NCBI GenBank assembly: GCA_964430885.1 | Contig: CAYSHM010000006.1 | Coordinates: 75,803-139,802 of the forward strand | DNA length: 64,000 nucleotides | Direction: 5' to 3' | From: an uncultured archaeon | GTDB taxonomy: Archaea; Thermoplasmatota; Penumbrarchaeia; JASLWR01 | Shown: positions 2,792 through 61,852 of the stretch, piece after piece | How positions within the stretch are numbered: position 1 is the stretch's first letter | Layout of the letters: each line of letters starts with the position of its first letter | Position numbers and translations under genes: made by a program | Notes under the pieces: generated by a model | Databases searched by the model: none | What the model saw: only the letters and a program-made list of their open reading frames with translations | Told to the model about the DNA's origin: nothing

Positions 2792-3421
2792 TTGTCAGAA
2801 GGATTACAGTTGAGGACATTTATATTCATCGATCAGATGCAGCCGCAATTTGCAGCATATCAGGCTACTGTCGGGAGAGGTTATCTGCCAGTATCAGGTA
2901 TGGCTGCAATATATATTGAAACTGCACCCGGAATGCCCATCAATCGGGTTACGGATCTGGCATTGAAATATACAAGTGTGAGACCGGCAGAACTAATAGT
3001 GGAGCGAGCTTTTGGAATGTTGGAATTCCATCATGAATCCCAGTCCGAGGTCAGAACAGCGGGAAAAGCCGTTCTAGATGGCCTAGGTTTGGAGGAGATG
3101 GACAGATATAAACCAAAGGTTGTGACCAATGAGATAATCAAGAAAATAGATGATTACCAGTCAATGATAATCAATCGTTCCTGGAGGGGTATGATGATCC
3201 TTCATGATCATTCTCTCTTCATTATGGAGACTCAGCCTGCCGCTTATATAACCTATGCCGCAAACGAGGCCGAAAAGGCAGCAGATATCAATATTGTCGG
3301 CATCAGGGCAGCCGGTGCCTTTGGCAGGCTGTACATCAGCGGTTGGGAATCCGATGTCAGGGCCGCAGCGGATGCCGCTACGACGGCCATAGAGGGTATT
3401 GACGGTAGGGATGATTGGTAG
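2792..3421 (+). CDS. BMC shell protein, tandem-domain BMC-T (EutL/PduB-like permuted type)
   Basis: Two BMC-like halves; second half 'AAYITYAANEAEKAADINIVGIRAAGAFGRLYISGWESDVRAAADAATTAIEGI' fits the BMC fold pattern. TTG start preceded by AGGAGG at 2776-2781. Call from recalled family motifs, not alignment. Confidence 0.55.
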   Translation: MSEGLQLRTFIFIDQMQPQFAAYQATVGRGYLPVSGMAAIYIETAPGMPINRVTDLALKYTSVRPAELIVERAFGMLEFHHESQSEVRTAGKAVLDGLGLEEMDRYKPKVVTNEIIKKIDDYQSMIINRSWRGMMILHDHSLFIMETQPAAYITYAANEAEKAADINIVGIRAAGAFGRLYISGWESDVRAAADAATTAIEGIDGRDDW

Positions 3422-4190
3422 TTCCGCCGACCTAGGTGTCTTTATGGATCCCGACCGTCTCAGGACCATCGTTCTGGAGCAGGTACGGAGATATTTTCAG
3501 AACGAGGGAATGGAGTTCATTCGATATGAAAAGGATTCCGAAGAAGGATCTAAAGGTATATTGATAGTGATAAACCGAACTGATCCATCAATGGACCTTT
3601 TATTCAGCCAGATAAACAATCTGGTATCTGCTGGTCATAACATCACATTGATGAGCACCTCCGAAGTGAGGGCAATATTGGGCCAGCAGGGCTATTGGTC
3701 ACTTGACCGGATCACCTACTTGTCTATTGATGATACCCGAAAGGTCAACATGAAAATTGACGAATATTGGTCCCTGCTATTTCCGGTTATAGGTTACTCC
3801 CTGGCCGGAGAGATATCAGCCTTAAAAGATACAAATCCATTGGCGGATTTGGCTTTGACGGCCCTGCGCAGTGGATTGGATGTCGGAGTGGCAGTGGATA
3901 CCCTTGAGACTGTAGGGAAGAAGGCTCGTAGGCCAAAGCTGATCTCCGAGTCCACCAGGATACAGAAGGGCTTATCGGGAATAGGCGTGAGATTGGTAAC
4001 CCTGGAAAATATGGTCAACGAGATGTCCTTTGACAAACGGAGGTTCACAGGCCGAGTGCTGACAGAGGATATAATAAACAGCTATATGTCCCGTGGCGTG
4101 TTCGATATCAATGTGGATGAAGATACTGTGATCACGCCTTTGGCAAGGGAAAGGGCAAGGGAGTTGAACATTCGAATAAATATCATTTAG
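3411..4190 (+). CDS. BMC-locus protein of unknown function; N-terminal amphipathic helix may be an encapsulation peptide
   Basis: ORF 3399..4190 with in-frame ATG at 3411 and 3444. N-terminus 'DPDRLRTIVLEQVRRYF' is amphipathic; C-terminal 'GRVLTEDIINS...VITPLARERARELNI' loosely resembles a segment of the N-terminal domain of the DeoC fusion at 11266. No family recognised. Confidence 0.45.
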   Translation: MIGSSADLGVFMDPDRLRTIVLEQVRRYFQNEGMEFIRYEKDSEEGSKGILIVINRTDPSMDLLFSQINNLVSAGHNITLMSTSEVRAILGQQGYWSLDRITYLSIDDTRKVNMKIDEYWSLLFPVIGYSLAGEISALKDTNPLADLALTALRSGLDVGVAVDTLETVGKKARRPKLISESTRIQKGLSGIGVRLVTLENMVNEMSFDKRRFTGRVLTEDIINSYMSRGVFDINVDEDTVITPLARERARELNIRINII

Positions 4191-4238
4191 AAATTGAATT
4201 AATAGGATCAGATATCATAGATCAAGGAGTGTAAGAAA

Positions 4239-4532
4239 ATGAAATTGTGCAGAGTGGTAGGAAATGTGGTAGCCACTGTCAAGGACCGAAACATCGAGTC
4301 CTTCAAGCTGATGATAGTACAACCGGTGGATTTCAAGGAACAGAAGCCCTATGGAGAGCCTCTAGTGGCAATAGATGCGGTTGGTGCCGGCCAAGATGAG
4401 CTGGTCCTGATAGTTCAGGGAAGTTCCGGCAGAATGACCGCTATAACTGACCAGAAACCGTCCGACTGTACGATAATGGCAATTGTGGATTTTGTGACCT
4501 TAAACGGTGAACAGACCTTTGCAAAACGGTGA
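4239..4532 (+). CDS. BMC vertex (pentamer) protein, EutN/PduN/CcmL family (BMC-P)
   Basis: 97 aa; 'MKLCRVVGNVVATVK...AIDAVGAGQDELVLIVQGSSGR...AIVDFVTLNG' matches the EutN/CcmL pattern. ATG at 4239 with AAGGAG upstream. Confidence 0.85.
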   Translation: MKLCRVVGNVVATVKDRNIESFKLMIVQPVDFKEQKPYGEPLVAIDAVGAGQDELVLIVQGSSGRMTAITDQKPSDCTIMAIVDFVTLNGEQTFAKR

Positions 4533-4550
4533 TCGAGGGAGGTTTTAATA

Positions 4551-5981
4551 ATGGAGATCAGGCAGGATCAGATAAATAATATTGTGGATGAGATAGTTAG
4601 AAGAGTGGAGCTGGATATGAGCTATGGGAAACCGAACATGGGGCCAGCCAAGCAGGGAGGCACTACAGGTATCTACAGCACTATTGACGAGTGTATTGAG
4701 AAGGCGAAGAAGGCAAGAAAGTTTTTGATGTCAATGTCATTGGATCAAAGGCAGAAGCTGATAGATGCCATGAAAGGGGAGATATTGCAGAACGCAGATC
4801 CTCTGGCCAAGCTTGCTGTTGAGGAGACTGGATTGGGTCGGTACAAGGACAAGGTGAATAAGAACATTCTGGCTGCGACAAAGACCCCTGGATGCGAGGA
4901 CCTGCAGACTGAAGCCCAGACGGGCGACGACGGTCTCACACTGTACGAGATGGGGCCCTTTGGAATTATAGCTTCCATAACACCTACTACCAATCCCACG
5001 TCAACGATCACATGCAACTCCATCGGCATGATCGCTGCTGGAAACGCTGTTGTGTTCAATCCCCATCCGAGGGCTACCAAGACCAGTCTGGAGACCATAA
5101 GACTGCTGAACCGGGGTATTCAGTCGGCAGGAGGTCCTACTGATCTTATAACAACGGTTAAAAAACCAACAATTGACACAAGCCAGGCTCTTATGAACCA
5201 TAAGGAGGTCAATCTACTCTGCGTAACCGGCGGTGAAGGAGTGGTGCATTACGGTCTTACCAGAGGGAAAAAATGCATTGCAGCAGGTCCGGGAAATCCT
5301 CCTGTTTTCGTGGACGATACCGCTGATCTGATACGGGCGGGCAGGGATATTGTGGACGGAGCCAGTTTTGACAACAATATCCTCTGTATAGCTGAAAAAG
5401 AGGTTCTGGTATTCGAAAATGTGGCAGATAGGCTAATCTCTGAGATGAGGAAACACGGTGCACATCTGGTCAGCGGAAAGGAGATAGACCGGCTGATAGA
5501 TTTGGTATTCAATGATCCCTCGGGAGAGATCCCCCTGGTGAACACCAAATGGGTGGGTCAGGATGCAGGTAAGATACTGCGGAACATAGGAATAACCGAT
5601 AAGTTCAATGCGCGATTGATCCTTGCCGAGGTTCCTCACGATCATCCATTCGTGCTGGCTGAAATGCTAATGCCAATACTGCCCATAGTTAGGGTGAAAT
5701 CCATAGATGAGGCCCTTAAAATTGGTCTGAGAGCCGAACATAGATTCAGACATACCGCAGCTATGCATTCCACAAATGTGGACAATATGACCAAGGTGGG
5801 ACGGGCAATGGAAACCACAATATTCGTTAAGAACGCTCCATCCTATGCAGGTCTGGGTTTTGGAGGTGAGGGATACTGCTCCCTTACAATAGCCGGACCA
5901 ACCGGTGAAGGAGTTACAAGGGCGAGGAATTTTGCCAGATTGAGAAGATGTACGCTCAAGGATTCATTCAGAATTGTGTGA
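4551..5981 (+). CDS. CoA-acylating aldehyde dehydrogenase (PduP/EutE-like) with N-terminal encapsulation-peptide-like helix
   Basis: 476 aa; catalytic-Cys region 'DNNILCIAEKE', 'GPFGIIASITPTTNPT'. N-terminal 'QDQINNIVDEIVRRVEL' amphipathic helix followed by linker. GAGGGAGG upstream. Confidence 0.85.
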   Translation: MEIRQDQINNIVDEIVRRVELDMSYGKPNMGPAKQGGTTGIYSTIDECIEKAKKARKFLMSMSLDQRQKLIDAMKGEILQNADPLAKLAVEETGLGRYKDKVNKNILAATKTPGCEDLQTEAQTGDDGLTLYEMGPFGIIASITPTTNPTSTITCNSIGMIAAGNAVVFNPHPRATKTSLETIRLLNRGIQSAGGPTDLITTVKKPTIDTSQALMNHKEVNLLCVTGGEGVVHYGLTRGKKCIAAGPGNPPVFVDDTADLIRAGRDIVDGASFDNNILCIAEKEVLVFENVADRLISEMRKHGAHLVSGKEIDRLIDLVFNDPSGEIPLVNTKWVGQDAGKILRNIGITDKFNARLILAEVPHDHPFVLAEMLMPILPIVRVKSIDEALKIGLRAEHRFRHTAAMHSTNVDNMTKVGRAMETTIFVKNAPSYAGLGFGGEGYCSLTIAGPTGEGVTRARNFARLRRCTLKDSFRIV

Positions 5982-6028
5982 ATAATAATCGATAATAAAT
6001 ATTTCAGTCCAGCAGATCAGGTGAAAAA

Positions 6029-7390
6029 ATGGCTTCATTGGGAACGGATATGGTAAGGAACTCGGGGATAATAGGTGCGGGTGGTGCAGGTTTTCCTACC
6101 CATGTCAAGCTGGCAGCTAAGGTTGATTGTGTAATAGCCAATGGTGCCGAATGTGAACCCCTTCTCAAGGCGGATAAGCAGCTCATGGAGCATTTCCCTG
6201 AAAAAATACTGGATGGTATGAAAGCAGCCATGGATATGACGGGAGCCCAGAAAGGTATAATAGCTCTAAAGAGAAAGTATGCGGATGCGGTGTCCTCCTT
6301 CAGAACTCGATTGGCGGATGCTGTGAACGGTAGATATGAAGGAATATCCATATTTGAACTTGAGAACTTCTATCCTGCAGGCGACGAACAGGTCATGGTC
6401 TATGAAGTGTTAGGACGGGTAATTCCCGAAGGCGCCATACCATTGTCAGCAGGTGTTGTTGTGGACAATGTGGGGACCCTGGCCCAAATATCGGAAGCCA
6501 TTGAAGGAAAAAATGTTACCCATCGGTGGGTAACGGTCACTGGTGAAGTGGCCTACCCAAAGACCCTTTACATCCCTATAGGTACTTCTATAGAAAAGAT
6601 GCTTGGATTGTGCGGGGGTCCGACAATAACCAATTACAGGATATTATCCGGAGGTCCCATGATGGGACGTCTAGTAAACCTTACCGATAGTGTTCTGAAA
6701 ACCACCTCGGGTATCATAGTTTTCCCGGCAGATCATTATGTTGTGAAGGCTAAAACCCGCCCGGTGGAAGTGAATGTTAGGTATACTTTAGCGGCATGCA
6801 TTCAGTGCAAAATGTGCACTGATGTATGTCCCAGATTCAATCTGGGTAAGTATGTATGTCCGGACAGTGTGATGAAAGGCATCGCTTACGGAATACTTTC
6901 AAAACCGGAGGATATGACCACCGCATTCCTCTGCGTTGAGTGCGGATTATGCACCCATTACGGATGCCCTATGGGTTTGGACCCCTGCGGTATGATGGGG
7001 AAGGTCAAATCCGAACTTATTTCCGAAGGTATGACGAACCCACATTCAAGGACGGATCTGTCTGCCAGGGAATACAGGCCTTTCAGAAAGGTTCCCCTAA
7101 AAAGATTGATGGCCAGGATGGATCTTTTGAGATATGATGTACCGGCACCCATGGAGCTGAAGGACCTATCGAAGGTTATTACAGAAGTGAATATCCCTCT
7201 TAAACAGCACATAGGCGCGCCTTCGAAACCTGTTGTGAAAGTGGGAGATCAAGTGAAGAAGGGTGAACTGATAGCAGATATTCCAAAAGGTTCTCTGGGG
7301 GCACGGTATCATTCCAGCATTAACGGTGAAGTAACAGGTGTGGATTCCTGCATCAGTATTAGAGCAAAGAAAATCGGAGGAATTGAATGA
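6029..7390 (+). CDS. PduS-like RnfC-family Fe-S flavoprotein (electron-transfer partner of PduT)
   Basis: 'GIIGAGGAGFPTHVKLAAKVDCVIANGAECEPLLKADKQLM' nucleotide-binding motif; two Cys clusters 'CIQCKMCTDVCP' and 'CVECGLCTHYGCP'; PduS-type C-terminus. Confidence 0.8.
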   Translation: MASLGTDMVRNSGIIGAGGAGFPTHVKLAAKVDCVIANGAECEPLLKADKQLMEHFPEKILDGMKAAMDMTGAQKGIIALKRKYADAVSSFRTRLADAVNGRYEGISIFELENFYPAGDEQVMVYEVLGRVIPEGAIPLSAGVVVDNVGTLAQISEAIEGKNVTHRWVTVTGEVAYPKTLYIPIGTSIEKMLGLCGGPTITNYRILSGGPMMGRLVNLTDSVLKTTSGIIVFPADHYVVKAKTRPVEVNVRYTLAACIQCKMCTDVCPRFNLGKYVCPDSVMKGIAYGILSKPEDMTTAFLCVECGLCTHYGCPMGLDPCGMMGKVKSELISEGMTNPHSRTDLSAREYRPFRKVPLKRLMARMDLLRYDVPAPMELKDLSKVITEVNIPLKQHIGAPSKPVVKVGDQVKKGELIADIPKGSLGARYHSSINGEVTGVDSCISIRAKKIGGIE

Positions 7391-7944
7391 GAGAGTCTAT
7401 AGGTCTCATGGAGTTCAACAGCATTGCAAAGGGTATTGAGGTGACGGATGTTCTTCTGAAGGCTTCCGAGGTGGAACTCATATTCTCATCGCCGGTGTGT
7501 CCTGGAAAGTATCTGATAATGATCTCTGGTGAGGTGGAGGCTGTTAAGAATTCACTGGGAAAAGGAGCCGACATATCGGATGGTTTCCTCATCGATCAAA
7601 GTGTAATACCTCAGGTTCATGAAAAGGTGTTCCCAGCCATAGCTGGGACCACACTGCCCGAGGTGATGGGGGCCATTGGTGTCATAGACTGCTATTCTTC
7701 GGTTTCGGCAGTAGTGGCAGCCGATAAAGCGGTGAAATCCGCCGATGTAGATCTGCTGGAGATTCGATTGGCCAGGGCGTTGGGAGGAAAGGCCTTTGTC
7801 ATAATAACAGGTGAGGTTGCCGATGTGAGGGCAGGTGTCGATAACGGAGTTGAGTCCATAAAGGAACACGGACTGCTGCTGGGCACAGTGGTAATTCCGT
7901 CCCCCCACCAGGACCTACTGGAAACGTTGATAGGATCGAGATGA
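7387..7944 (+). CDS. PduT-like tandem BMC-T shell protein with conserved Fe-S ligand Cys38
   Basis: 185 aa, two BMC domains; 'SIAKGIEVTDVLLKASEVELIFSSPVCPGKYLIM' parallels PduT '[34 protein letters not shown]' as recalled. Start ATG overlaps PduS stop (ATGA). Confidence 0.85.
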   Translation: MRESIGLMEFNSIAKGIEVTDVLLKASEVELIFSSPVCPGKYLIMISGEVEAVKNSLGKGADISDGFLIDQSVIPQVHEKVFPAIAGTTLPEVMGAIGVIDCYSSVSAVVAADKAVKSADVDLLEIRLARALGGKAFVIITGEVADVRAGVDNGVESIKEHGLLLGTVVIPSPHQDLLETLIGSR

Positions 7945-8041
7945 TCAGATCATAAATTCATATCACGATTAATTAAATTAATTAATTGATGAATAATTTG
8001 AAGAATATAATCAAGAAGATGAAAAATAGAAGTTGATTGAA

Positions 8042-8548
8042 ATGAGAATTTGCAGGGTAATAGGCAATCTGGTATCCACATGCAAGATACCTGATCACGA
8101 AGGTTTCAAGATACTGGCGGTTCGTGCTGTCGATCTTCACGGCAGAATGCATGGTGAGACCTTTCAGGCTATAGATTGCGCCCAGGCAGGTGTGGGTGAT
8201 TTTGTGCTCGTGATAGAGGAAGGAGGCTCCTGCAGTCAGGTGATGAGCGGAGTTAAGTCGCTAACCCCCAAGGGTGACCGGGTGGCAGTCAACAAGTCCA
8301 TTCTTGCTGTTGTGGATTATATTGAGGCTGATGGAGAGCTCAGAAGGCTGGAGCAGACAGCAGAGATGGAAGAGGATGGAGGAAAGAAAAAATTAAGAAG
8401 TACCAAGGTTAAAAGAAAGACCTCCAAGGCTACTGGAAAAAAGGGTAAAGAAAAAAAAAGTGAAAAAACGTCAGGAAAAAATTCCCGCAAACCTGCTAAA
8501 ACCTTGGCAACAAAGAAAGGCAAGGGCGGTAAGAAGAAGAAGGGTTGA
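8042..8548 (+). CDS. BMC vertex protein (EutN/CcmL family) with about 60-aa lysine-rich C-terminal extension
   Basis: 'MRICRVIGNLVSTCK...AIDCAQAGVGDFVLVIEEGG' BMC-P core, then tail 'GKKKLRSTKVKRKTSKATGKKGKEKKSEKTSGKNSRKPAKTLATKKGKGGKKKKG'. ORF-track start 8033 is TTG; first ATG at 8042. Confidence 0.8.
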   Translation: MRICRVIGNLVSTCKIPDHEGFKILAVRAVDLHGRMHGETFQAIDCAQAGVGDFVLVIEEGGSCSQVMSGVKSLTPKGDRVAVNKSILAVVDYIEADGELRRLEQTAEMEEDGGKKKLRSTKVKRKTSKATGKKGKEKKSEKTSGKNSRKPAKTLATKKGKGGKKKKG

Positions 8549-8554
8549 TAGATT

Positions 8555-9469
8555 ATGTCAGAAGACGAGCTCAGAAAGTTAGTAGAAAACATGGTTCGAT
8601 CCATGCTGGAATCCGGTTCTGTGGAGATACAGAAGGGAACTGCTCTAAGGACCCAGGGAGATATCTCAAGGCCTACCAACAATTATTTTAATGATCAGAT
8701 GGAGGGTAATGCCCGGTATGTGGTTGCAGCCAATTGGAAGATGAACATGACCACCATAGAGGCCAAGGAATTCGCTATGCAGATAAGGGCCTTAGGAGAG
8801 GAAATTTCCAATAGTAAAAGGGATGCAGTGGTCTGTCCTCCTATTTATTTGGCTCCTCTTCTGAAAACAGCGTTCATGGGGACGGGTATCCGGTTGGGCG
8901 GTCAGAATATGCACCATGAGACCAAGGGTGCTTATACCAGCGAGATATCGCCTCTAATGCTTAAGGATGCGGGTTGTCAATATGTGATAATTGGACATTC
9001 TGAAAGGAGACATATATTTGGTGAAAAGGACCATCATATCAATATGAAGGTGAGGTCAGCTTTCAATCATGGCCTTGTACCTCTTTTCTGCGTTGGCGAG
9101 ACCGAGAAGGAACGGGAGAGCAATGCTACCTTCAGGGTTGTCAGGAAACAATTGAAATTGGGCCTCTATAAGACAAGCTCCAAGCAATCCGGCAGGCTGA
9201 TAATCGGTTATGAACCGGTTTGGGCAATAGGCACTGGGAGAAATGCTACTCCGGCTGACGCCCAAAGGGTACATGCATTCATCAGGGAGGTTCTGACGGA
9301 GATCTACGATTTCCCCACGGCCAAGAATATCAGGATTCTCTACGGCGGAAGCGTTACACCTGATAATGCTTCAGGTCTTATAGCCAAAAAAGATATCGAC
9401 GGTTTCCTGGTGGGGGGTGCTTCTCTCACCGCTTCCAAGTTTATGAGCATAGCGGAGGTGTGCAAATGA
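8555..9469 (+). CDS. tpiA: Triosephosphate isomerase, bacterial type, with about 50-aa N-terminal extension (putative encapsulation peptide)
   Basis: 'AANWKMN', 'IGHSERR', 'YEPVWAIGTG', 'YGGSV' motifs. N-terminal 'EDELRKLVENMVRSMLE' amphipathic helix precedes the catalytic core. Confidence 0.85.
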   Translation: MSEDELRKLVENMVRSMLESGSVEIQKGTALRTQGDISRPTNNYFNDQMEGNARYVVAANWKMNMTTIEAKEFAMQIRALGEEISNSKRDAVVCPPIYLAPLLKTAFMGTGIRLGGQNMHHETKGAYTSEISPLMLKDAGCQYVIIGHSERRHIFGEKDHHINMKVRSAFNHGLVPLFCVGETEKERESNATFRVVRKQLKLGLYKTSSKQSGRLIIGYEPVWAIGTGRNATPADAQRVHAFIREVLTEIYDFPTAKNIRILYGGSVTPDNASGLIAKKDIDGFLVGGASLTASKFMSIAEVCK

Positions 9470-9945
9470 GCCAGGATATGAGGAAGATATTGATAGGTAG
9501 TGATCACGGGGGATTTGAGTTAAAGGAGATTATTAGACAGTTCCTCAAGGACCAGGGATACCGGGTTGTTGATTTTGGTTGCTATTCGCCGGACCCTGTT
9601 GACTATCCAGATATTGCCTTTTTGGTCTCTCAGGGGGTGTGTTCGAATCCTAATTCAATTGGTATAATGATAGATGGGGTAGGTGTTGCCAGTACAATGG
9701 TTGCAAACAAGATTCCCGGGATCAGGGCCGCCCTTTGCTGGAATCAGTTCAGCGCACACAATGCACGTGAGCACAACAATGCAAATATGCTCGTCCTAGG
9801 GGGTAGGGTAATCGGTGATATATTGGCCAGGAGCATTGTGAAGGAATTCCTGGAAACAGAATTTGCCGGCGGACGGCACGCACGGAGGGTAGACAAGATA
9901 ATGGCGATTGAAGCCAAATATCTGAGGTCTATTCAGGAAAAATGA
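9466..9945 (+). CDS. rpiB: Ribose-5-phosphate isomerase B (RpiB/LacAB family)
   Basis: 'KILIGSDHGGFELKE', 'MLVLGGRVIG', 'FAGGRHARRVDKI'. ATG at 9466 overlaps tpiA stop (ATGA); alternative ATG at 9478. Confidence 0.8.
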   Translation: MSQDMRKILIGSDHGGFELKEIIRQFLKDQGYRVVDFGCYSPDPVDYPDIAFLVSQGVCSNPNSIGIMIDGVGVASTMVANKIPGIRAALCWNQFSAHNAREHNNANMLVLGGRVIGDILARSIVKEFLETEFAGGRHARRVDKIMAIEAKYLRSIQEK

Positions 9946-10047
9946 GTTAAAAGTTAACAGAGTTAGGATAAATTTATTAGTTCAGTGTAATAATAATATA
10001 AAACTTAATAATATAGAGTTGAGAGACGAATCTTGAGGAGTGAACCA

Positions 10048-10335
10048 ATGTATATCGGTAAAGTAATGGGAACCGTGGTGGCCACAAGGAAGATAGATAC
10101 CCTTAAAGGGATCAAACTGCTCCTAATACAGCCCTTGGATGATGATATGAAACCCTCGGGAAGGTTACTGGTGGCCGGGGATGCCCAGGGAGATACAGGA
10201 GAAGGTGATGTGGTATATTTGGTCACCAAGAAGGAAGCCTGTTTCCCCTTCGGTGGTCTGACCCCCCTTGATCACGCTGTGGCGGGTTATATTGATGATT
10301 ATCATATTGAAGAATCTTTAAAAGAGGGGAAATAA
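10048..10335 (+). CDS. BMC vertex protein (EutN/PduN/CcmL family), third paralog
   Basis: 'MYIGKVMGTVVATRKIDTLKGIKLLLIQP...LVAGDAQGDTGEGDVVYLV'. ORF-track TTG start at 10033; first ATG at 10048 after GAGGAG. Confidence 0.8.
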   Translation: MYIGKVMGTVVATRKIDTLKGIKLLLIQPLDDDMKPSGRLLVAGDAQGDTGEGDVVYLVTKKEACFPFGGLTPLDHAVAGYIDDYHIEESLKEGK

Positions 10336-10640
10336 GCATAACATGGACACTGCGGACAACCATCCAAGGCTCTATTTACCTGGAAGAAATATTTGGACAG
10401 TAAATAATAATATAGGAATAAGGTAAGATTAGTGTGTTAATTTAATCCTGTTACCAGGATGTGAATTCATAATAGTATTGGATAGGGCATGGGTATGAGT
10501 AAAGGTAAAAAGCAATAGATGAAAAATTCGAAATCAGCTATTGAAATGTATAATCAATCAAAAATTATTGAGAAGTAGTAGTCAAGGATTATTACAATGG
10601 AGATACATTGAATCCAAAACAAATCAAGGAGGAAAAATAA

Positions 10641-10934
10641 ATGAGAGATCTACAGAAAATTGCATTGGGAATGATTGAGACAAAGGGAGAGATAGGAGCT
10701 ATAGAAGCTGCAGATGCCATGGTAAAGGCAGCCAAAGTGACCCTTATCGGAAAGGATTTCGTCGGCGGCGGCTATGTGTGCGTTATGGTCAGGGGAGAGG
10801 TTGGGGCTGTCAAGGCGGCAATAGACGCCGGTGGAGCCGCTGCAGCCAGGGTCGGAGAGCTTGTCTCAGTTCACGTTATTCCCAGGCCCCACGAGGAAGT
10901 AGAGGATGTTCTGCCTTCCATTGATAGGGATTAA
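10641..10934 (+). CDS. BMC hexamer shell protein (BMC-H, PduA/EutM/CcmK-like)
   Basis: '[26 protein letters not shown]...[33 protein letters not shown]' matches the canonical BMC-H pattern closely. AAGGAGG upstream. Confidence 0.9.
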
Positions 10935-11265
10935 AGTAATACTGCATTAAATTGTTATTTGCAGGGATGGGCTGAAATATTCGCCTGCTCCCTTAGAGAA
11001 CAGGATTTGCATTTGGAGATTTATCCTCAAAATAATAATGATATTCTTTTAGGAAGATCATCTGAATGTTTTATCCTGCAATTTACTCAATAGGATTAAA
11101 TCGAATTGATATCTATGGTGATCATGAAAGCAAAGGCCATATGTCAATTACTTCCAGATTGAAATGCGGGTAGTATTGTTACCTTTGATATCAAGATCCG
11201 GGATATGGAATGTATGGCCTAAACACCACGAAAAAATTCAAGAATAGTGATAATGAAGTGATACA

Positions 11266-12705
11266 ATGGAAAGGGAGGAAGCGATCAAAAGGATAACCGA
11301 AGAGGTTCTTGCAAGAATTAGGGGCGCATCTTCGGGTAATTCTTTGAATACCTCACAGGGATCTGCCGCGGATCAATCCGAAAAGGGACGGAGTGCACCT
11401 TATTTAGCCTCTGGGGGAAAATCCATTATTATGATACTCAGCGGAGACCGGACTATTGAGGATCTGAGAGAGGACATCAGTTCCATATGCAGTAGCCAGA
11501 AGGTTGAAATGATAGTGGTATCCGATTGGGCTCTTAGGTCCTTCAACATCTTTAAACTCAAGGGTTTAGCTCCTGGGATAAAACTGCTCCAGGAGGGGGA
11601 CATATTGGGCAGCAAGACAATATCAGACATCTTATCAGACGTTGACTCGGTCTATGTTCTCGACCTGGATATTCCCAGTGCTTCGCGTATTGCAGATTTT
11701 GCTCCAGTGCTGCCTGCTGAAAGGGTTATCACAGGGGCAATTATTTCCGGTAAAAGCGTTATCTGTTCACATGCACTTCTGAGCCCAATGGCAGGGGAGC
11801 TAACTCCTCCATGCGCCCGTGAGGCCATTTCCGCAGTTGAGAAGAAGCTCGTGGCCGTCGGTGTTGCCATGCTTGGTTCGGGGACTTCTTTCAGTGATAA
11901 TGAAGCAGTGGAACAGGCCCTAGCCCGCTGCCCGGCGGGTGAAGGAGAATGTATTGGATGCGGATTGTGCGTGAACCTGAACACAGCAGGCGTGGAGAAC
12001 ATCTTTTCAGCCGGAGCCCAGAGGATTAGTACGGCTACCGGATTGGATACCCCCAATCCAGATATGGCTCGTATGATAGATCACACGCTGCTGAAACCCG
12101 CTGCCACAGAGGATGATATCCGGGAGCTATGTGATGAGGCTAGAAGATACAATTTCGCTACGGTATGTGTTAATCCATCCCATGTAGCCCTTGCAGCAAG
12201 GGAGCTGAGAGGAACGGATGTTGGTATCACCACTGTCATCGGTTTCCCCCTGGGAGCAACAACCCATACCGCAAAGTCCATTGAGACCCGGGATGCAATA
12301 GCCAATGGCGCCAATGAGATAGATATGGTGGTTAACGTTGGCGCTCTGAAGGCTGGCAACGATGATCTGGTAAAAAGGGATATTGCGTCAGTGGTGAACG
12401 CTGCAGGCAATGATGCTATTGTCAAGGTGATTCTTGAGACCTCTCTGCTGAATGACGAGGAGAAGGTCAGGGGCTGCCTGCTCTCAAAGATGGCCGGGGC
12501 GGATTATGTGAAGACATCCACTGGTTTTGGTCCTGGCGGCGCTACCGTAGAGGATATCCGCTTAATGAGGCAGACTGTGGGCCCAGATATGGGGGTTAAG
12601 GCCTCTGGAGGGATCAGAAATACAGACGATGCCAATGCCATGCTTGAAGCAGGTGCTTCAAGGATAGGTGCTAGTGCTTCAGTTGCCATTGTTAAGGGCG
12701 CATGA
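11266..12705 (+). CDS. deoC: Deoxyribose-phosphate aldolase (DERA/DeoC) fused to about 265-aa N-terminal domain of unknown function with Cys cluster and encapsulation-peptide-like N-terminus
   Basis: C-terminal 'IDHTLLKP...VCVNP...[12 protein letters not shown]...VKASGGIR' are DeoC hallmarks. N-terminal '[15 protein letters not shown]' amphipathic helix; Cys cluster '[14 protein letters not shown]'. Confidence 0.85.
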
Positions 12706-12818
12706 GCCAAGGATCTCTTAAATATCCATTCCAGGTATACTAACTACCAAATGGAAGTCGCCTAGTTGCATGAAACTAGTGCAAGCTGTAGTAAATAATG
12801 CATGAAGGGATTGGATAA

Positions 12819-14678
12819 ATGAATGAAAAAGACCTCCAAAGGGACGATGGTCCCGCTACAGGGAATACCATGGAAAATGAAGAGGAGTTTTCATACACTT
12901 CCGGTGAAATAACCGGCAAATCTCCCATGGAGCAAACTCTGGATCAAGGTCTTCAATTTCTCGAATACCTCCAAAAGCGGAAGGAAACATACAGGGCGGT
13001 CAAACTATATTTTCATAATGACATGGACGGTTTTGCTTCCTCACTTCTTGTGAACCATCTCCTGACAAAGATCGGTTATGAAATTCCTCTGGAGAACATA
13101 CACCCCTTGGCTCATGTCAACCTGAATAATGTGGCAATAGATGAACAGCATCTATTTTTCTTTGTAGATATACGGCCCCCTAGCTCAGCTTTCAAAGAAT
13201 CAAGTCTGGCGGGAGAGGATAGACCTTTCATGGAAAATGTTTTCTGTGTGGATCATCACACAACCCTGGATTCACCCCTTTCACCCCATGCGAATTTCTT
13301 TCTTTACAACTATGAGATCGATGATATTCTTCCATCCACTGCCACCTTCCTGATGTATTATCTTGTAATGCTTGAGAAAGGGATCAGGGGAACCTACGGT
13401 GCCCTCATGAGGGAATGGATGACGAACCCCCCCATGAACACAAGATATCTTCTGCTACAGGCCACCATTGCTGATCATCTTCATCTTCTGTCGGAAAAGC
13501 TACCCAATAATCCCCTGAGGTATCTATCCAACCTGCTTATTGAGGATATGGATGCCTATGTGCTCCTATCAATAACCACCTCACTGCTGCTGGGAGGGGA
13601 CGGCGGACATATGGATATGTTCAGGCAACTATATTCCGAAGCCCTGGGGAATATCAATCAGGAATTAATGGCCCAGAAATTAGAGAACAATCTTTCTCAG
13701 GTACTTTCGCTTTTTGAATTCGTGGATATTCTCATGAAGAAGCGTAAGGAATTCATCGATGATATGGCCAAGGATATGGATGGGGAGATCCAGAGAACAG
13801 AAGCTGGGATCAGCGGAATGACGGATACCCTGAATAACTATAACACCGCAGCCGATAAGATCAAGGAGGAACTCTCATTCCAGAATATAGCTATGGGGAA
13901 ACTGAAGGATCTTCGAAATGATTACATGGGTATCAGGGAGCAGATGACGCGTTTAGAGAACCAGATAGGTATTGAGTTGGGAAGGCTTGAAAAACAGAAA
14001 GTTCTCAGATACCATCTTGTGGCTGAAGGAGACATCAATTTATCAGTTTTCCTGCCACCCCAGAACAATGATCAGGTTAGAGGCATACTGTCATCACTTC
14101 TATTTTATCACGGTAATAACAACATCATCATAGAGGAGAAGACATCCAAGGCCGTGTGGAGTTCAAGGGGTTATGAGGGAAAGGAATTGGAAAGCTTCCT
14201 GACAACAGTATCGGTGGACATGGAGAAATTGATGGAACTGAAGGAACATCAGGAGGCGGTGGAGGAATTTAAGGGAGATCCAACCATAATTGAGAAGCTT
14301 GAATTGGATGAGAGGTCCCCTCCTTTGATATCTGTGGAGAACCGATATATCGGACAGATGGGTGGCAGGAGTAGGATATTCGGCGGTATCATTACCAGCA
14401 ATGTCACCCTTGATGCTAGCACTTTGGTTCAAGACAGAGGAGGTAATGAACTACAGTCCATACTTACGGTTCCTCACCAGCGGTTCTGGATATCAACTAT
14501 ACAAGCAATAAAGGAAAAATTCAAGGAGAGCCAGTGGTTCACAGTACAGGTGGAAGGGGGTGCAAGCTTGGGCGAGATACTCTCAGACCAGTGGGAGCTG
14601 CTGCTGATGCATTTCATGGGCAATAGGATGTCATACAGGATTTTTGAACTGAAAAGCAATGGTCAAGATGGCATCTGA
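12819..14678 (+). CDS. DHH-family phosphoesterase-like protein with central coiled-coil
   Basis: 'HNDMDGFAS' and 'VDHHT' resemble DHH motifs I and III of RecJ/NrnA-type phosphoesterases; rest unassigned. Confidence 0.45.
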   Translation: MNEKDLQRDDGPATGNTMENEEEFSYTSGEITGKSPMEQTLDQGLQFLEYLQKRKETYRAVKLYFHNDMDGFASSLLVNHLLTKIGYEIPLENIHPLAHVNLNNVAIDEQHLFFFVDIRPPSSAFKESSLAGEDRPFMENVFCVDHHTTLDSPLSPHANFFLYNYEIDDILPSTATFLMYYLVMLEKGIRGTYGALMREWMTNPPMNTRYLLLQATIADHLHLLSEKLPNNPLRYLSNLLIEDMDAYVLLSITTSLLLGGDGGHMDMFRQLYSEALGNINQELMAQKLENNLSQVLSLFEFVDILMKKRKEFIDDMAKDMDGEIQRTEAGISGMTDTLNNYNTAADKIKEELSFQNIAMGKLKDLRNDYMGIREQMTRLENQIGIELGRLEKQKVLRYHLVAEGDINLSVFLPPQNNDQVRGILSSLLFYHGNNNIIIEEKTSKAVWSSRGYEGKELESFLTTVSVDMEKLMELKEHQEAVEEFKGDPTIIEKLELDERSPPLISVENRYIGQMGGRSRIFGGIITSNVTLDASTLVQDRGGNELQSILTVPHQRFWISTIQAIKEKFKESQWFTVQVEGGASLGEILSDQWELLLMHFMGNRMSYRIFELKSNGQDGI

Positions 14679-14939
14679 TTTTCTGCACCTGAAATATGAT
14701 CACTTCACTTCGATAGCCTATCATCCAATGATATATTCCAATGAAAAATTTTAAAAATGATACACCTTTTCCACTTACAGAACCGAATAGGAGTTTTTTC
14801 GGGGATAATATGAACTAAAAAATGTTATACTTGGTGTAACATAAACATGGATTCATAGTGTATTGGTTTGATCAATCAAAGTGCTAAGGGGATTGAATTG
14901 ATCTTGGTGATCTCCCGAGGAGATACAAGAGGTGGATAG

Positions 14940-15827
14940 ATGAACATTGAGAACAAGTTATGGTTTGGAATCATAGTAGGTGCAGTTGTTTTGCTGATAG
15001 TTTCAGTTATTCTTTATGCTACATTCAAAGAGGAAAACGTTGAGGAAGGAAAGACCTCCATTCCTGTAATTCTAGAGGGTTATGAGATAGAGTACAAATA
15101 TACGGTCCGAATCGGCGGACCTAACGGACCGGTATATGATTCCAATATGGACAATATCATAAACTCATCTCTGGTTGAGAAAACGGTTTTCTATAATAAC
15201 TATGCTCAATGGCCGGAACGTTTCATAGTTGGTGAGCACCCGGCCGATGCGGAATTACCTTCCTTCAGCGATCATTTCATTGGACATGAGGAAGGGGACC
15301 ATTTCAATTTCGTTCTTTCGGGGGTGAGCCGTCTAGAATATAACGACAGTAAAAGGGTGGAAATACCTGTGAAGGAGAAGATACCTCTCTATGAGACAGT
15401 GAACAAAGAGCAGTTCAAATCATCGTTAGGAGCTGTGGATTTGAAGGTTGGTATGATATATAATCATGGTTTTTGGGGATGGGAAATTGAGATTTTTGAA
15501 TTTATCGACGAGAATAATATGACAATTTATCACAGACCTGAGATAGGTTACGAAATAGATGTTCTTCCCTGGTCTTCCGAAGTGAAGGATGTATCATCTG
15601 AAACGGGTTTCATAACTCTGAATCATGATCTGACAGATAAAGATCTTCTAAAGGGCCAGTTCTACCCCTTTGAATACACGGATTATTCTGACCATTTTGA
15701 TAATATGAACAATCCGGGTTACATCCAACAGCTTGGTCCGAATTATATAGTGATCGAGTTCAATGATGAACGCGCAGGTGCGGATATTTATTTTGATATA
15801 GAGATAGTGAGGATTCTGAATTCCTGA
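14940..15827 (+). CDS. N-terminally membrane-anchored protein, function unknown (possibly FKBP-like)
   Basis: N-terminal TM helix 'LWFGIIVGAVVLLIVSVILYA'; ORF with ATG start. Confidence 0.4.
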   Translation: MNIENKLWFGIIVGAVVLLIVSVILYATFKEENVEEGKTSIPVILEGYEIEYKYTVRIGGPNGPVYDSNMDNIINSSLVEKTVFYNNYAQWPERFIVGEHPADAELPSFSDHFIGHEEGDHFNFVLSGVSRLEYNDSKRVEIPVKEKIPLYETVNKEQFKSSLGAVDLKVGMIYNHGFWGWEIEIFEFIDENNMTIYHRPEIGYEIDVLPWSSEVKDVSSETGFITLNHDLTDKDLLKGQFYPFEYTDYSDHFDNMNNPGYIQQLGPNYIVIEFNDERAGADIYFDIEIVRILNS

Positions 15828-15839
15828 TGAGGTGATGTA

Positions 15840-16766
15840 ATGGCAAGGAAAAGAAGCGTGGACGGATCAAAAAGAGGAAAACACGGCGGAGACGCATCCA
15901 TGTTCGATGATATCGATGAGTACAGTATAAGGGAAGAGGTGAGGGGTTCGGTCATGAAGGAGTCATCCCGCAGAAAAGCCTTAATGCCTTATGTGGTTCT
16001 GGTACTTGTAATATTAGCAATAATAGGAGGGTATTTTGCCTACATGTATCTTATAAAGGAAGACAAGGATACACCTGCTTCTGATTTCAATGAGGATAAT
16101 TCCTTCATTGCAGATGTGGAGATAAAGGTAGAGACCAAGACCGATGGTGATGGAAGCCACAGCCCTTTTGATTACAGTATGCACAAGGTTGATCCTTCTA
16201 GGGGAACCCAATACCTGCTTTTGATCAAGAACAAGGGTGAAGAAAAGGATTCTTTCCGATTGACTGCGGACAATCCCAGCGGTTGGTCAGTCACCTTCGA
16301 AGGTGGTAATGTCATGACGGACATGTCCCCGGGGTACTGGGATTACAAGATAATGACCATAAAGGTGACTGATTCAAGTGATTCCTATAGGGACATAAAG
16401 ATTACAGCTACTTCATTATCAGACCCGTTAGTAAAGGACAGTATTATCACCAAGAACACAGTGGAATCTCTTCCTCCTGGCGAAGCAGATCTGAACAATG
16501 ATCCGGCTAAGGTAGATTACAATTTGGTATATTACGGCGGAGGAACTTCCGGGGAGAAGGGCTGGTATCATAATCAGGGTAGCGAGTTCGAGGCCACAAA
16601 TGTTATTCAGGGGTTCAAGGAGGCCATCAAGGGAATGAGAGTAGGCCAGACCAAAGTAATAGAGGTTCCACCTGAAAAGGGATATGGTCCGGATGATGAG
16701 AAGCATGTTGGCGGCCGTCCCCTGGTCTTCGAGATCACAATGCTGGATGTCAACACCAATAATTAG
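15840..16766 (+). CDS. Membrane-anchored protein with C-terminal FKBP-type peptidyl-prolyl isomerase domain
   Basis: TM helix 'VVLVLVILAIIGGYFAYMYL'; C-terminal 'FKEAIKGMRVGQTKVIEVPPEKGYG' FKBP-like. Confidence 0.55.
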   Translation: MARKRSVDGSKRGKHGGDASMFDDIDEYSIREEVRGSVMKESSRRKALMPYVVLVLVILAIIGGYFAYMYLIKEDKDTPASDFNEDNSFIADVEIKVETKTDGDGSHSPFDYSMHKVDPSRGTQYLLLIKNKGEEKDSFRLTADNPSGWSVTFEGGNVMTDMSPGYWDYKIMTIKVTDSSDSYRDIKITATSLSDPLVKDSIITKNTVESLPPGEADLNNDPAKVDYNLVYYGGGTSGEKGWYHNQGSEFEATNVIQGFKEAIKGMRVGQTKVIEVPPEKGYGPDDEKHVGGRPLVFEITMLDVNTNN

Positions 16767-18323: not shown

Positions 18324-18503
18324 ATGAAGCATTTTTTATTCAAGTGTTCAGAATGTTCAGTCTATACTATGGACCAACAATGCCCAGAATGCGGTAATAC
18401 AGCTTGGGCTGTGGAACCCCCTCGTTTTTCACCACAGGACCGTTGGGGGAAATACCGCAGAAAGTTATTACTTAACTTGGAGAATGATGAGAATGATGGA
18501 TAG
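18324..18503 (+). CDS. nop10: H/ACA ribonucleoprotein component Nop10 (59 aa; absent from ORF track)
   Basis: Hand translation from ATG 18324: MKHFLFKCSECSVYTMDQQCPECGNTAWAVEPPRFSPQDRWGKYRRKLLLNLENDENDG, stop TAG 18501-18503. Zinc ribbon plus 'PPRFSP' motif; canonical position after aIF2-alpha. Confidence 0.7.
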   Translation: MKHFLFKCSECSVYTMDQQCPECGNTAWAVEPPRFSPQDRWGKYRRKLLLNLENDENDG

Positions 18504-24110: not shown

Positions 24111-25031
24111 GTGTTAAATTTGGATGGGACAGTCTCTAAAGAGTTCAGGAAGGATATCGTGAACAGTTATTCAGGTCTAGAGGAATTGCCGCGCTTTCCG
24201 ATTCTAGATAATCATTTGCATCTGGACCCCTCAGGTTGCGCCCCCCGAGTATTGAAGGATTTTGTTGATTTTGGAGGTACCCATATTGTAGTGGTTCACA
24301 AACCCTATCGGCAGAGACCCATTTTAAAAAAGGATGATTTCAATAAGAGCTTTGATATTACTGTAGGTCTTGCAGATAACATAGAGAACGATACTCCCCT
24401 CTCAGTAATCAAAATGATAGGTCCTTATCCGGTGAACCTTATTCATCTGGAAAAAAAACACGGACTTGAAAAAGCTGAGGATATAATGATCCAAGGTATG
24501 GAATTGGCTGGCAAGTATGTCGAAGAAGGGAAGGCTCAGGGCATAGGGGAGATAGGTCGGCCTCATTTTGATGTGCATCCCGAAATAATCGATGCATCCA
24601 ACCGAATACTAGAGCATGGCCTTTCAATTGCCAGTGATCTGGAGTGTCCGGTTCATCTTCATACAGAGTCGGGGAATTCCGAACTTTTTCTGGAGATATC
24701 ATATATGGCAAAAAGAGCCGGTTGTGATCTGGACAAGGTTGTGAAGCATTTCTCGGGACCAATGGTGGATCTTATTGAAAACCATGGTCTTTTTCCATCC
24801 GTTCTAGCAAGCAGCAGAAATGTGAAAACCGCAGTTGTCAAGAATACTAGATTTGTAATGGAAACAGATTATATGGATGATCCCAAAAGACCTGGGGCCG
24901 TGATGGTTCCCAAGACCATACCTAAAAGGACATTTGAATTGATATCCAAAGGTCTTTTGGATGAAAAGGGAGTATATGATATTCATTCATATTGGCCAGG
25001 CCGGATCTACAACATGGATTTTGATCTGTAG
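24111..25031 (+). CDS. TatD-related metal-dependent hydrolase (TIM-barrel)
   Basis: 'ILDNHLHLDP' and 'VHLHTE' His motifs; GTG start (no in-frame ATG near the 5' end). Confidence 0.45.
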   Translation: MLNLDGTVSKEFRKDIVNSYSGLEELPRFPILDNHLHLDPSGCAPRVLKDFVDFGGTHIVVVHKPYRQRPILKKDDFNKSFDITVGLADNIENDTPLSVIKMIGPYPVNLIHLEKKHGLEKAEDIMIQGMELAGKYVEEGKAQGIGEIGRPHFDVHPEIIDASNRILEHGLSIASDLECPVHLHTESGNSELFLEISYMAKRAGCDLDKVVKHFSGPMVDLIENHGLFPSVLASSRNVKTAVVKNTRFVMETDYMDDPKRPGAVMVPKTIPKRTFELISKGLLDEKGVYDIHSYWPGRIYNMDFDL

Positions 25032-58524: not shown

Positions 58525-58694
58525 AATGGCCTACCCCCATTTATCAATTTAGCCTGATGAATTTGGATTAAAAATTGAATTTATTTATTATTCAAGATAT
58601 TATATATATATTTATACCTGTAACTATTTCATATTCAGTGTTGGTATCATAACCTGAACGGTAATTAAAATTGAGATTTTACAGGTGTGTACGG

Positions 58695-60926: not shown

Positions 60927-61340
60927 CTATTTCCTTCTTCTGTCCCGCTCGTCATCCTCCTGCTGAATCTCCCTTTTAAGCAGCTCATGGTGCCATTTCT
61001 CCACAATAAAACTGTCCGACCAAGGACAATATGTGTCCTTTATGGCACAGCCACGGTCAGGATCGAATATTACGGGATACAGCTGGCAACCCAAAGGTCT
61101 TATATCGTATATGGAGCAATTACCGCGGTCAAGAAAAAAACAATTTCCGTCCACATTCTTCAGCTGGATGTATCCGTCGACCTTAATGGTGAAATTACTG
61201 AACCCCGCCTTTCTAATGGCACGTAGGTCCTTAAGGGATAAGGTCATTTCGGTATTCTGACAGCAACGGTAGCAACTGTGCACCCTGCAGGGCGATATTC
61301 CTCCTGAAACCGGAGGTCTGAGCTCAGTCATAATTACCAC
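60927..61340 (-). CDS. Cys-rich YkgJ-family putative Fe/Zn-binding protein
   Basis: 'CRVHSCYRCCQ' CxxCxxCC motif plus additional Cys. Confidence 0.45.
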   Translation of the reverse strand: MVIMTELRPPVSGGISPCRVHSCYRCCQNTEMTLSLKDLRAIRKAGFSNFTIKVDGYIQLKNVDGNCFFLDRGNCSIYDIRPLGCQLYPVIFDPDRGCAIKDTYCPWSDSFIVEKWHHELLKREIQQEDDERDRRRK

Positions 61341-61852
61341 TGGTCTTTCTTTATGGGATTCAGGGTTATACCTGACTGACCCATGTAGTTTCCGCTCTTC
61401 TCTTCGTATAGAGATGAAGGAATGCTAGTCAGACGCTGGATCACCAGTTGGACAATCCTCTCACCTGGCTTCAGAATGATGTCTGAATGAGAGCAGTTAA
61501 GAAAACTCAGGGTCAGAGTTCCCTCGAATCCCGCATCGATCTTGCCGAAAGCGGGTAGAAATCCCTTTCTGGCGAATGTTGTCCGTATCCAGCATTCTCC
61601 AACTAGATTAGGTCCGAACCTGAGCTTTTCCTGAGTAGATATTATGAAACGGGATTTGGATGGTATAAGGGTCATTTCATTGGTCACGGTTTTCATCAGT
61701 TCGGGTATCAAAATTTCGCCTATTCTAAGGTCGTATCCGTTTGGCGTCAGGTCCTTTTCCCTGAAGGGTTGTATGGACAGTTCGTTATGCTCAATGGCTG
61801 AAATTATATCTACATCGCTGAGAATCGAGATTATATCACTTCCAATTATCAT
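61334..61852 (-). CDS. dcd: dCTP deaminase / dUTPase-family protein
   Basis: 172 aa; 'LTPNGYDLRIGE', 'GKIDAGFEGTLTL', 'GERIVQLVI' beta-barrel dUTPase-fold motifs. Confidence 0.65.
   Translation of the reverse strand: MIIGSDIISILSDVDIISAIEHNELSIQPFREKDLTPNGYDLRIGEILIPELMKTVTNEMTLIPSKSRFIISTQEKLRFGPNLVGECWIRTTFARKGFLPAFGKIDAGFEGTLTLSFLNCSHSDIILKPGERIVQLVIQRLTSIPSSLYEEKSGNYMGQSGITLNPIKKDQW

Follow-up and report, generated by a model that had tools for sequence, protein, structure and literature searches.

A divergent RecJ-superfamily (DHH) protein beside a microcompartment locus of Thermoplasmatota archaea: conserved active-site motifs and a plausible but unproven link to the compartment

Introduction

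The characterised DHH enzymes RecJ, NrnA and GAN bind two divalent metal ions, Mn2+, by means of a set of Asp and His residues. The subject of this work is a divergent gene of the RecJ (DHH) superfamily which lies directly behind a locus for an SPU-type bacterial microcompartment (BMC), in a 64-kb window (the whole stretch of DNA analysed here) of contig CAYSHM010000006.1, from an archaeon of the order JASLWR01 (Thermoplasmatota). SPU-type archaeal microcompartments were described, in Hodarchaeales and in the order JASLWR01 itself, by a November 2025 preprint, which attributes them to horizontal transfer from bacteria and reports that phosphotransacylase (PTAC) is missing from the JASLWR01 loci (PMC12747264). 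The substrate of SPU compartments is thought to derive from DNA breakdown (PMC11585597, PMC12747264); they are assumed to burn DNA-derived deoxyribose 5-phosphate, and so far no nuclease has been tied to SPU genetically. DHH, RecJ, nuclease or FKBP genes are not mentioned in the preprint (PMC12747264), and a DHH/RecJ gene is not named as a component in the SPU and archaeal compartment literature that was searched. The archaeal compartment is thus already known, and the DHH gene beside it is previously undiscussed.

The family to which this gene belongs is an unannotated branch of the RecJ/Cdc45 superfamily with an intact active site, an unusual stalk between its two domains and an Arg-for-His replacement in the substrate-binding motif. 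We lean towards reading its product as a cytosolic phosphodiesterase of the RecJ branch, native to Thermoplasmatota, upstream of which the compartment locus was inserted.

Results

The gene occupies the following stretch:

12819..14678, + strand: divergent RecJ-superfamily (DHH) gene; open reading frame (ORF) with an ATG start, 619 codons for 619 amino acids (aa), recognised by its homologues and by Foldseek.

The first-pass annotation, made from the sequence without database searches, had put a DHH-motif protein of the RecJ/NrnA superfamily on the + strand after deoC, and this stands: the ORF runs exactly from 12819 to 14678 and the signature can be read in its translation. A search among 5.8 billion proteins returns 13 full-length homologues (E 1e-52 to 1e-147), and a profile search of 1.8 billion cluster representatives gives 52 hits, 21 of them with E < 1e-30, which together mean that we are dealing with a real gene and not with a chance ORF. 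A word-indexed homologue search with a wider profile brought the same 13 proteins back and none new. None of the database copies seen has a name or a precomputed Pfam domain, all being entered as 'hypothetical proteins', and the copies whose contig can be placed are all archaeal. On balance we take this tiny, patchy and rare family to be native to Thermoplasmatota archaea rather than part of the bacteria-derived microcompartment module. In the closest relative (46% identity; contig L024, 1024-1250; the L labels denote related loci) the called Met lies within motif I, and the DHH frame stays open for about 40 codons before it; this upstream stretch holds no ATG, GTG or TTG, suggesting an assembly error or an unusual start.

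The DHH domain and its motifs are laid out as follows:

12987..13598, + strand: DHH catalytic domain, residues ~57-260 (Pfam, NCBIfam, hhalign; AlphaFold (AF2) confidence, pLDDT, 70-91 over most of the domain).
13014..13031, + strand: DHH motif I, H66-N-D68-M-D70-G71 (FHNDMDG); D70 and G71 invariant, D68 in at least 90% of 19 members.
13161..13178, + strand: DHH motif II, FVD117IRP; D117 invariant.
13251..13259, + strand: DHH motif III, D145-H146-H147 (CVDHH); D145 and H147 invariant, H146 in at least 90%.
13473..13475, + strand: DHH motif IV aspartate, D219 in ATIADH; invariant in the 13 close members, in at least 90% of the 19.

The catalytic set D68/D70, D117, D145-H146-H147 and D219 is in order, complete and conserved, both in the 13 close homologues (27-47% identical to the window protein) and in a wider set of 19 members (22-47%), so that the full set of DHH catalytic motifs which the first-pass reading presupposed is indeed there, all four being kept across the 19. 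The protein is among the fastest evolving in its block, and the active site is retained nonetheless. Pfam PF01368 is matched by 19/19 family members (best E 6e-6) and NCBIfam RecJ_archaeal by residues 51-166 (E 4e-7), that is, by the first ~115 residues of the domain only. Alignment by hhalign with ten canonical, GGGH-bearing archaeal RecJ-like proteins gives a probability of 99% and E 3.7e-18 for the DHH domain only, and a profile search of the PDB returns 7bhi (E 0.0025). By these sequence comparisons the DHH domain is firmly assigned, with archaeal RecJ-like proteins as its nearest relatives.

The full-length AF2 model (pLDDT 68.9, pTM 0.67) shows a DHH domain, a confident helical hairpin and an alpha/beta C-terminal domain with a poorly defined middle. 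Compared with the PDB by Foldseek it yields 29 matches with E <= 0.001, each of them a RecJ, an archaeal RecJ-Cdc45, a RecJ2, a GAN or a Cdc45 (RecJ of S. aureus, Thermus, Deinococcus and P. furiosus; RecJ-Cdc45 of M. thermautotrophicus; RecJ2 of M. jannaschii; GAN of T. kodakarensis; Cdc45 of Entamoeba), while human Cdc45 falls just under the cut-off (E 1.2e-3 to 3e-3). The TM-scores are low (0.22-0.38), as is to be expected of a multi-domain protein with a large insert. Behind the DHH domain come:

13659..14021, + strand: antiparallel helical hairpin between the domains, residues 281-352 and 359-401 (AF2, pLDDT 84-95).
14031..14654, + strand: C-terminal DHHA1-like domain, residues ~405-612 (Foldseek fold matches, without sequence-level support).
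14352..14387, + strand: GQMGGRSRIFGG motif, in place of the DHHA1 GGGH..AAG phosphate-binding motif; G515, G516, G522 and G523 invariant, R517 in at least 90%.

For the hairpin, PDB and Pfam hold coiled-coil-type chance matches only. The full-length Foldseek alignments to RecJ and GAN extend over 540-676 columns and span both domains, and the C-Ala domain of AlaRS, a DHHA1-type fold, is matched separately (probability 0.84-0.99). From beta strand through QVRGILSSLL helix, NIIIE strand, WSSRG and a ~50-residue insert to GGR..FGG, the elements of the C-terminal domain come in what we take to be the order of DHHA1. GGGH..AAG itself does not occur, and GG-R517-x-K519-x-(F/Y)-GG stands in its place. 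The domain may thus be called DHHA1-like by the logic of fold and motif only.

Upstream of the DHH gene the window holds:

2792-12705, + strand: complete SPU-type microcompartment locus, on the same strand as the DHH gene.
11266..12705, + strand: DERA (deoC), the last recognised BMC gene (TIGR00126, E 6e-86), with a 265-aa N-terminal extension and an encapsulation-peptide-like helix.

The locus encodes a tandem-domain shell protein, three EutN-type pentamers, BMC-H, aldehyde dehydrogenase, a PduS-like flavoprotein, triosephosphate isomerase, RpiB and DERA; in agreement with PMC12747264, it has no phosphotransacylase gene. Its second EutN-type pentamer protein (8033-8548, + strand) has 171 aa, as opposed to 109-115 aa in all relatives, and ends in a Lys/Arg-rich tail of ~55 residues (GGKKKLRSTKVKRKTSK...KGKGGKKKKG) which, among the JASLWR01-type loci seen, is found in this genome only; a tail of such kind is reported to bind DNA in Hodarchaeales compartments (PMC12747264). 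In two related loci (L003, 2063-3653; L025, 176-1644) a gene for an AAA_15/AAA_21 ATPase and a gene of ~155 aa are inserted within the compartment operon, between those of aldehyde dehydrogenase and the PduS-like protein, and may be a mobile or defence gene pair. The host of the window is archaeal, with aIF2-alpha, a PAC2 proteasome-assembly chaperone, L44e, S27e, a Cbf5-type pseudouridine synthase and a Nop10-like ORF; the related contigs are labelled Thermoplasmatota or Thermoplasmata archaeon, and among them is JASLWR010000064, which belongs to the genome after which the GTDB order JASLWR01 is called.

The DHH gene lies directly 3' of deoC, on the same strand, in 10/10 of the BMC-bearing relatives examined, where it is followed by a gene of ~296 aa and then by an FKBP_C gene of ~310 aa. 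Identity of these relatives to the window is 58-64% for aIF2-alpha, 53-65% for DERA, 71-75% for aldehyde dehydrogenase, 75-86% for most shell proteins and 33-46% for the DHH protein. The signals and genes around the DHH gene are:

12706..12818, + strand: deoC-to-DHH intergenic gap of 113 nucleotides (nt), with no T-run of five or more and no motif common to the relatives.
14749..14762, + strand: TATA/BRE-like (BRE, B recognition element) word TTTTAAAAATGATA upstream of the next gene, conserved across loci, with a T-run after it.
14940..16766, + strand: two FKBP-type proteins (of 295 and 308 aa), each anchored in the membrane by one transmembrane helix, retained with the block in all relatives.

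Elsewhere the deoC-DHH gap measures 25, 37, 42, 84 or 131 nt (25-42 nt in three lineages), and several of these gaps hold a GAGGT box resembling a Shine-Dalgarno (SD) sequence. Over five other loci the word TTTTAAAAATGATA accumulates 7 mismatches in all, and the best word of the deoC-DHH gaps 28; TTTTAAAAATGATA likely marks where the transcription unit of the DHH gene ends on its 3' side. The short gaps, the lack of a common promoter word upstream and the conserved TATA-like word downstream suggest that transcription continues from deoC into the DHH gene and begins anew at the FKBP pair. In its longer form the intergenic word reads TTTTAAAAATGATAC-N3-TTTT(T)CC (14749-14775, + strand) and is kept in L001, L003, L005, L008 and L010; at 191 nt from the ATG in the window, as compared to 28-61 nt in the relatives, it is probably the archaeal BRE/TATA promoter of the 295-aa FKBP-like gene.

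The conserved order does not stop at the operons. In this lineage synteny extends to FKBP, L44e, S27e, aIF2-alpha, Nop10, PAC2, TBP, TatD and a surface protein, and since it runs through unrelated genes, conserved position alone is weak evidence of function. Likewise, the FKBP-type pair has its own probable promoter, shows no link to nucleotides and is kept just as faithfully, so that retention in the block does not imply function. In L008, L009 and L025 archease or a C25 peptidase replaces L44e-S27e-aIF2-alpha downstream of FKBP, and the block from compartment to FKBP is intact. Between aIF2-alpha and PAC2 we also find an unlisted ORF of 59 aa (18324-18503, + strand), a zinc ribbon (CSEC...CPECG...PPRFSPQDRWGKYRR) which looks like Nop10 by its sequence and would complete the archaeal L44e-S27e-aIF2alpha-Nop10 cluster.

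Not all family members neighbour a compartment. A neighbour-joining tree groups the BMC-adjacent copies in a single clade, and their adjacency therefore counts as one evolutionary event. Members outside this clade are 22-29% identical and sit in unrelated contexts; no shell or deoC gene was found near them within the sequence examined, which reaches up to 10 kb on either side and is much shorter on the short contigs L007, L016 and L017. In L007 and L015 a giant surface protein with BNR repeats precedes the DHH copy, and L021 resembles the two in gene layout; in L016 the copy comes after ThiI; in L014 it is flanked by an HdrD-like gene pair on one side and by a secreted protein plus S3Ae on the other, and L017 has an upstream pair of similar size. 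As members occur with no BMC next door, the basic job of the family should be independent of the compartment. The idea of a downstream partner gene shared by all copies was rejected, because the 270-aa gene after the BMC-less copies of L014, L019 and L020 is unlike the 295-aa FKBP-like gene; it encodes a secreted, Asp-rich protein with a DxDxDG-type repeat.

Three enzymes of the locus begin with an amphipathic helix, whose hydrophobic moment (muH) is given below:

4551-4610, + strand: N-terminal amphipathic helix of aldehyde dehydrogenase, DQINNIVDEIVRRV (muH 0.77).
8555-8615, + strand: N-terminal amphipathic helix of triosephosphate isomerase, DELRKLVENMVRSM (muH 0.72).
11266-11330, + strand: N-terminal amphipathic helix of DERA (muH 0.59).

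Each of these helices is followed by a Gly/Ser-rich linker, which gives them the textbook look of encapsulation peptides; triosephosphate isomerase as a cargo candidate is worth noting. On the DHH protein no such helix was found: its N-terminal extension is acidic, Pro/Gly-rich, disordered and unconserved, with a maximum muH of 0.27. The protein is accordingly not predicted as microcompartment cargo and would be cytosolic. That it might substitute for the missing phosphotransacylase was only a thought, rejected because the family exists without a compartment and without an encapsulation peptide. A defence-system reading, inspired by the combination of coiled coil and nuclease, was dropped too, PADLOC having no match for the DHH protein or for its two downstream neighbours. 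Base composition proved uninformative as a marker of an imported block, for the DHH gene (GC 0.447; GC at third codon positions, GC3, 0.506) is inside the range of both BMC and ordinary genes. In and around the gene Rfam gives sub-threshold noise only, and there are no tRNAs.

Two further nucleotide-related genes of the window had been brought into the picture by the first-pass annotation:

24111-25031: TatD gene, 9.4 kb downstream, in a run of housekeeping genes.
61334-61852, - strand: dCTP-deaminase-like gene, 46.7 kb away.

Both exist, but neither is part of the block retained with the BMC, and both sit in housekeeping runs. Near the dCTP-deaminase-like gene there is a fusion of a deaminase-like amidohydrolase with NUDIX (58671-60323, + strand), followed by a gene of the isochorismatase family; these may form, with the dCTP-deaminase-like gene, a small nucleotide-metabolism cluster whose position is unrelated to the compartment. 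Elsewhere in the window two tandem paralogous proteins of 1403 aa (28167-32378 and 32546-36757, - strand) carry Lamin Tail and Big_5 domains and probably belong to the cell surface, and a protein of 1304 aa (54610-58524, - strand) has an N-terminal WD40 propeller that best matches eukaryote-type WD40 families, its remainder being unannotated.

Discussion

With its motifs conserved over such divergence, the DHH protein is in our judgement quite probably an active phosphodiesterase of the RecJ superfamily. In the mechanism we propose, the seven conserved Asp and His residues of motifs I-IV would hold two divalent metal ions, and these would activate a water molecule for hydrolysis at the terminal phosphodiester of a short oligonucleotide or a single-stranded nucleic acid, so that nucleoside or deoxynucleoside monophosphates (NMPs/dNMPs) are set free. 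The DHHA1-like C-terminal domain would close over the active site, its conserved GG-R517-x-K519-x-x-GG loop taking the role of GGGH and gripping the substrate phosphate, and the 120-residue helical hairpin, which would replace the single linker helix of RecJ, may serve as an arm for dimerisation or docking. In JASLWR01 the compartment locus would have been inserted upstream of this gene and would so have placed it at the end of the string of microcompartment genes, with transcription probably running into it from deoC. The enzyme could then supply dNMPs for the formation of deoxyribose 5-phosphate, a use that would be secondary and specific to this lineage.

Several observations weigh against this picture. 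In the catalytic domain, the Pfam DHH match of the single protein (residues 64-180, E 6e-4) scores 20.5 bits and the curated cut-off is 28.1, and the distant member P0017 has DRH in place of DHH. The C-terminal domain is affected most: in the full-length model pLDDT drops to 32-65 at residues 450-560, with low confidence around the GGR loop, and a model of this domain by itself, from an alignment of eight sequences, is unusable (pLDDT 40). Nor could the DHHA1 assignment which the first-pass annotation called for be obtained from sequence, as 0/19 family members match DHHA1 (PF02272) at E <= 1, a PDB profile search of the C-terminal part gives chance coiled-coil or GpsB matches only, and a local hhalign alignment with the DHHA1 part of canonical archaeal RecJ, which puts GGR on GGH, is not significant (E 0.25). 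As to transcription, L001 has a run of eight T directly after deoC, a possible terminator. Finally, a tight placement after deoC that is invariant in 10/10 relatives could exceed an accident of insertion.

A functional tie between the DHH protein and the compartment is plausible but unproven, and we consider it rather unlikely. In its best developed form the enzyme, co-expressed with DERA, would stand at the front end of the compartment pathway and degrade scavenged DNA or oligonucleotides to dNMPs, to be turned into deoxyribose 5-phosphate via nucleotidase, nucleoside phosphorylase and phosphopentomutase, a role that we likewise hold to be rather unlikely. Such a role would fit a gene that comes next after deoC in 10/10 BMC-bearing contigs though their aIF2-alpha is only 58-64% identical, with gaps down to 25-42 nt and SD-like boxes, and whose adjacency survives downstream rearrangement in L008, L009 and L025; it would also fit the presumed origin of the SPU substrate in DNA breakdown (PMC11585597, PMC12747264) and the Lys-rich tail, of the reported DNA-binding kind, on the window pentamer at 8033-8548 (PMC12747264). 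Against it, this adjacency goes back to a single event, members of the family occur with no BMC next door, an FKBP pair with its own probable promoter and no plausible nucleotide link is kept just as faithfully, the searched SPU and archaeal compartment literature is silent on a DHH gene, and the neighbourhood does not encode the remaining steps of the salvage route. TatD is 9 kb and the dCTP deaminase 47 kb away. Of the earlier suggestion that these genes feed deoxyribose phosphates to the compartment, the part that stands is that the DHH gene adjoins the BMC locus in every BMC-bearing relative examined, whereas the single clade, the BMC-less relatives and the distance of TatD and dCTP deaminase weaken the rest. 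More doubtful still is that a protein made of DHH domain, coiled-coil stalk of ~120 residues and GGR-bearing DHHA1-like domain was recruited as the nuclease arm of the JASLWR01 SPU operon. If true, a gene would for the first time connect the breakdown of DNA or oligonucleotides with an SPU compartment, and the stalk might serve to attach the enzyme to the shell, or to DNA bound by the Lys-rich pentamer tail.

Other readings leave the compartment aside. The protein could be a highly diverged orthologue of the replicative RecJ/GAN/Cdc45, working with GINS and MCM at the fork, in which case its helical insert would correspond to the additional helices of Cdc45; or it could be a small-nucleotide enzyme of the NrnA/GdpP type (pAp phosphatase, nanoRNase, cyclic-dinucleotide or pApA phosphodiesterase) in housekeeping or signalling, and we find the one as improbable as the other. 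The best matches do include RecJ-Cdc45 (7bhi, 7bjq), GAN (5ghr, 7e15) and Cdc45 (6cc2, 5dgo), the L014 copy is one gene away from S3Ae, which belongs to the canonical RecJ neighbourhood of S15, S3Ae and Pcc1, and RecJ orthologues that evolve fast have been described from other archaea (PMC3307487). Yet S15 and Pcc1 are beside no examined copy, S3Ae is beside that of L014 only, and none of the three is near the window gene; moreover, the Cdc45 matches rank below bacterial RecJ and the family is patchy and rare. Canonical archaeal RecJ-like sequences such as P0049 also have an insert of ~90 residues after motif IV, which we take to be the CID (CMG-interacting) insert; in the window protein residues 220-280 are predicted to form helices only, which run directly into the hairpin, with no beta-containing insert of such length. 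Besides, Thermoplasmata normally carry canonical RecJ paralogues. As for the small-nucleotide enzymes, they share the two-domain layout of DHH and DHHA1-like domains, one of them (the DHH-type PAP phosphatase 8a8k) is among the fold matches, and a loop as rich in Arg and Lys as GGR-x-K would go well with a small phosphorylated ligand; but RecJ-type proteins outscore NrnA-type ones both by sequence and by fold, and nothing like the 120-residue stalk is present in known small-molecule DHH enzymes. A native RecJ-branch phosphodiesterase behind an inserted locus is the reading we retain.

Either way the gene has something to tell. If it is co-expressed with DERA and its product degrades DNA, the assumed DNA origin of the SPU substrate could be tested in an archaeon; if it is just a neighbour, it teaches caution, since in this lineage a location beside a compartment locus says little about function.

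Comparison with known systems

The SPU loci described so far, including the archaeal microcompartments (AMCs) of JASLWR01 (PMC11585597, PMC12747264), resemble the present arrangement in that the DHH gene is contiguous with the locus, on the same strand, and that their substrate is presumed to be DNA-derived; they differ in that no DHH/RecJ component has been described for them, and the DHH protein has no encapsulation peptide and has relatives without the locus. Closer to the protein itself are the NrnA/COG2404 nanoRNases and the DHH-type pAp phosphatases, likewise DHH plus DHHA1 phosphoesterases with the same metal-binding motifs, but these are shorter, at ~310-340 aa, carry GGGH, lack a stalk and give lower scores here. 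Eukaryotic Cdc45 (5DGO, 6CC2) shares the RecJ fold, extra helical material between the domains and a similar length; it has, however, lost the catalytic residues that our family keeps, and its fold matches are weaker (E 1e-4 to 3e-3).

Bacterial RecJ, the 5'-3' exonuclease of single-stranded DNA (8Y30, 1IR6, 2ZXO, 5F54), provides the top Foldseek match (8y30, E 4.5e-7) and has the same order of motifs, at similar spacing, in DHH and DHHA1-type domains joined by a long helix. The window protein, in contrast, has neither an oligonucleotide-binding (OB) fold nor a C-terminal domain that binds single-strand-binding protein (SSB), and shows a different DHHA1 motif, an archaeal host and a coiled-coil hairpin. 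With archaeal RecJ, GAN and RecJ-Cdc45 (arCOG00427; 5GHR, 5X4H, 7BHI, 6TVV) it has in common a homologous DHH domain with all catalytic Asp and His residues, an archaeal host and two domains with a helical linker, and they are among its best fold matches. It departs from them by an identity of ~12-14% in structural alignments, by the lack of a CID-type insert, by the expansion of the linker to a 120-residue helical hairpin, by GGR..(F/Y)GG in place of GGGH..AAG, with an insert of ~50 residues before this motif, and by a location outside the S15/S3Ae/Pcc1 neighbourhood. Both the stalk and the Arg-for-His change bear on the evolution of archaeal RecJ paralogues.

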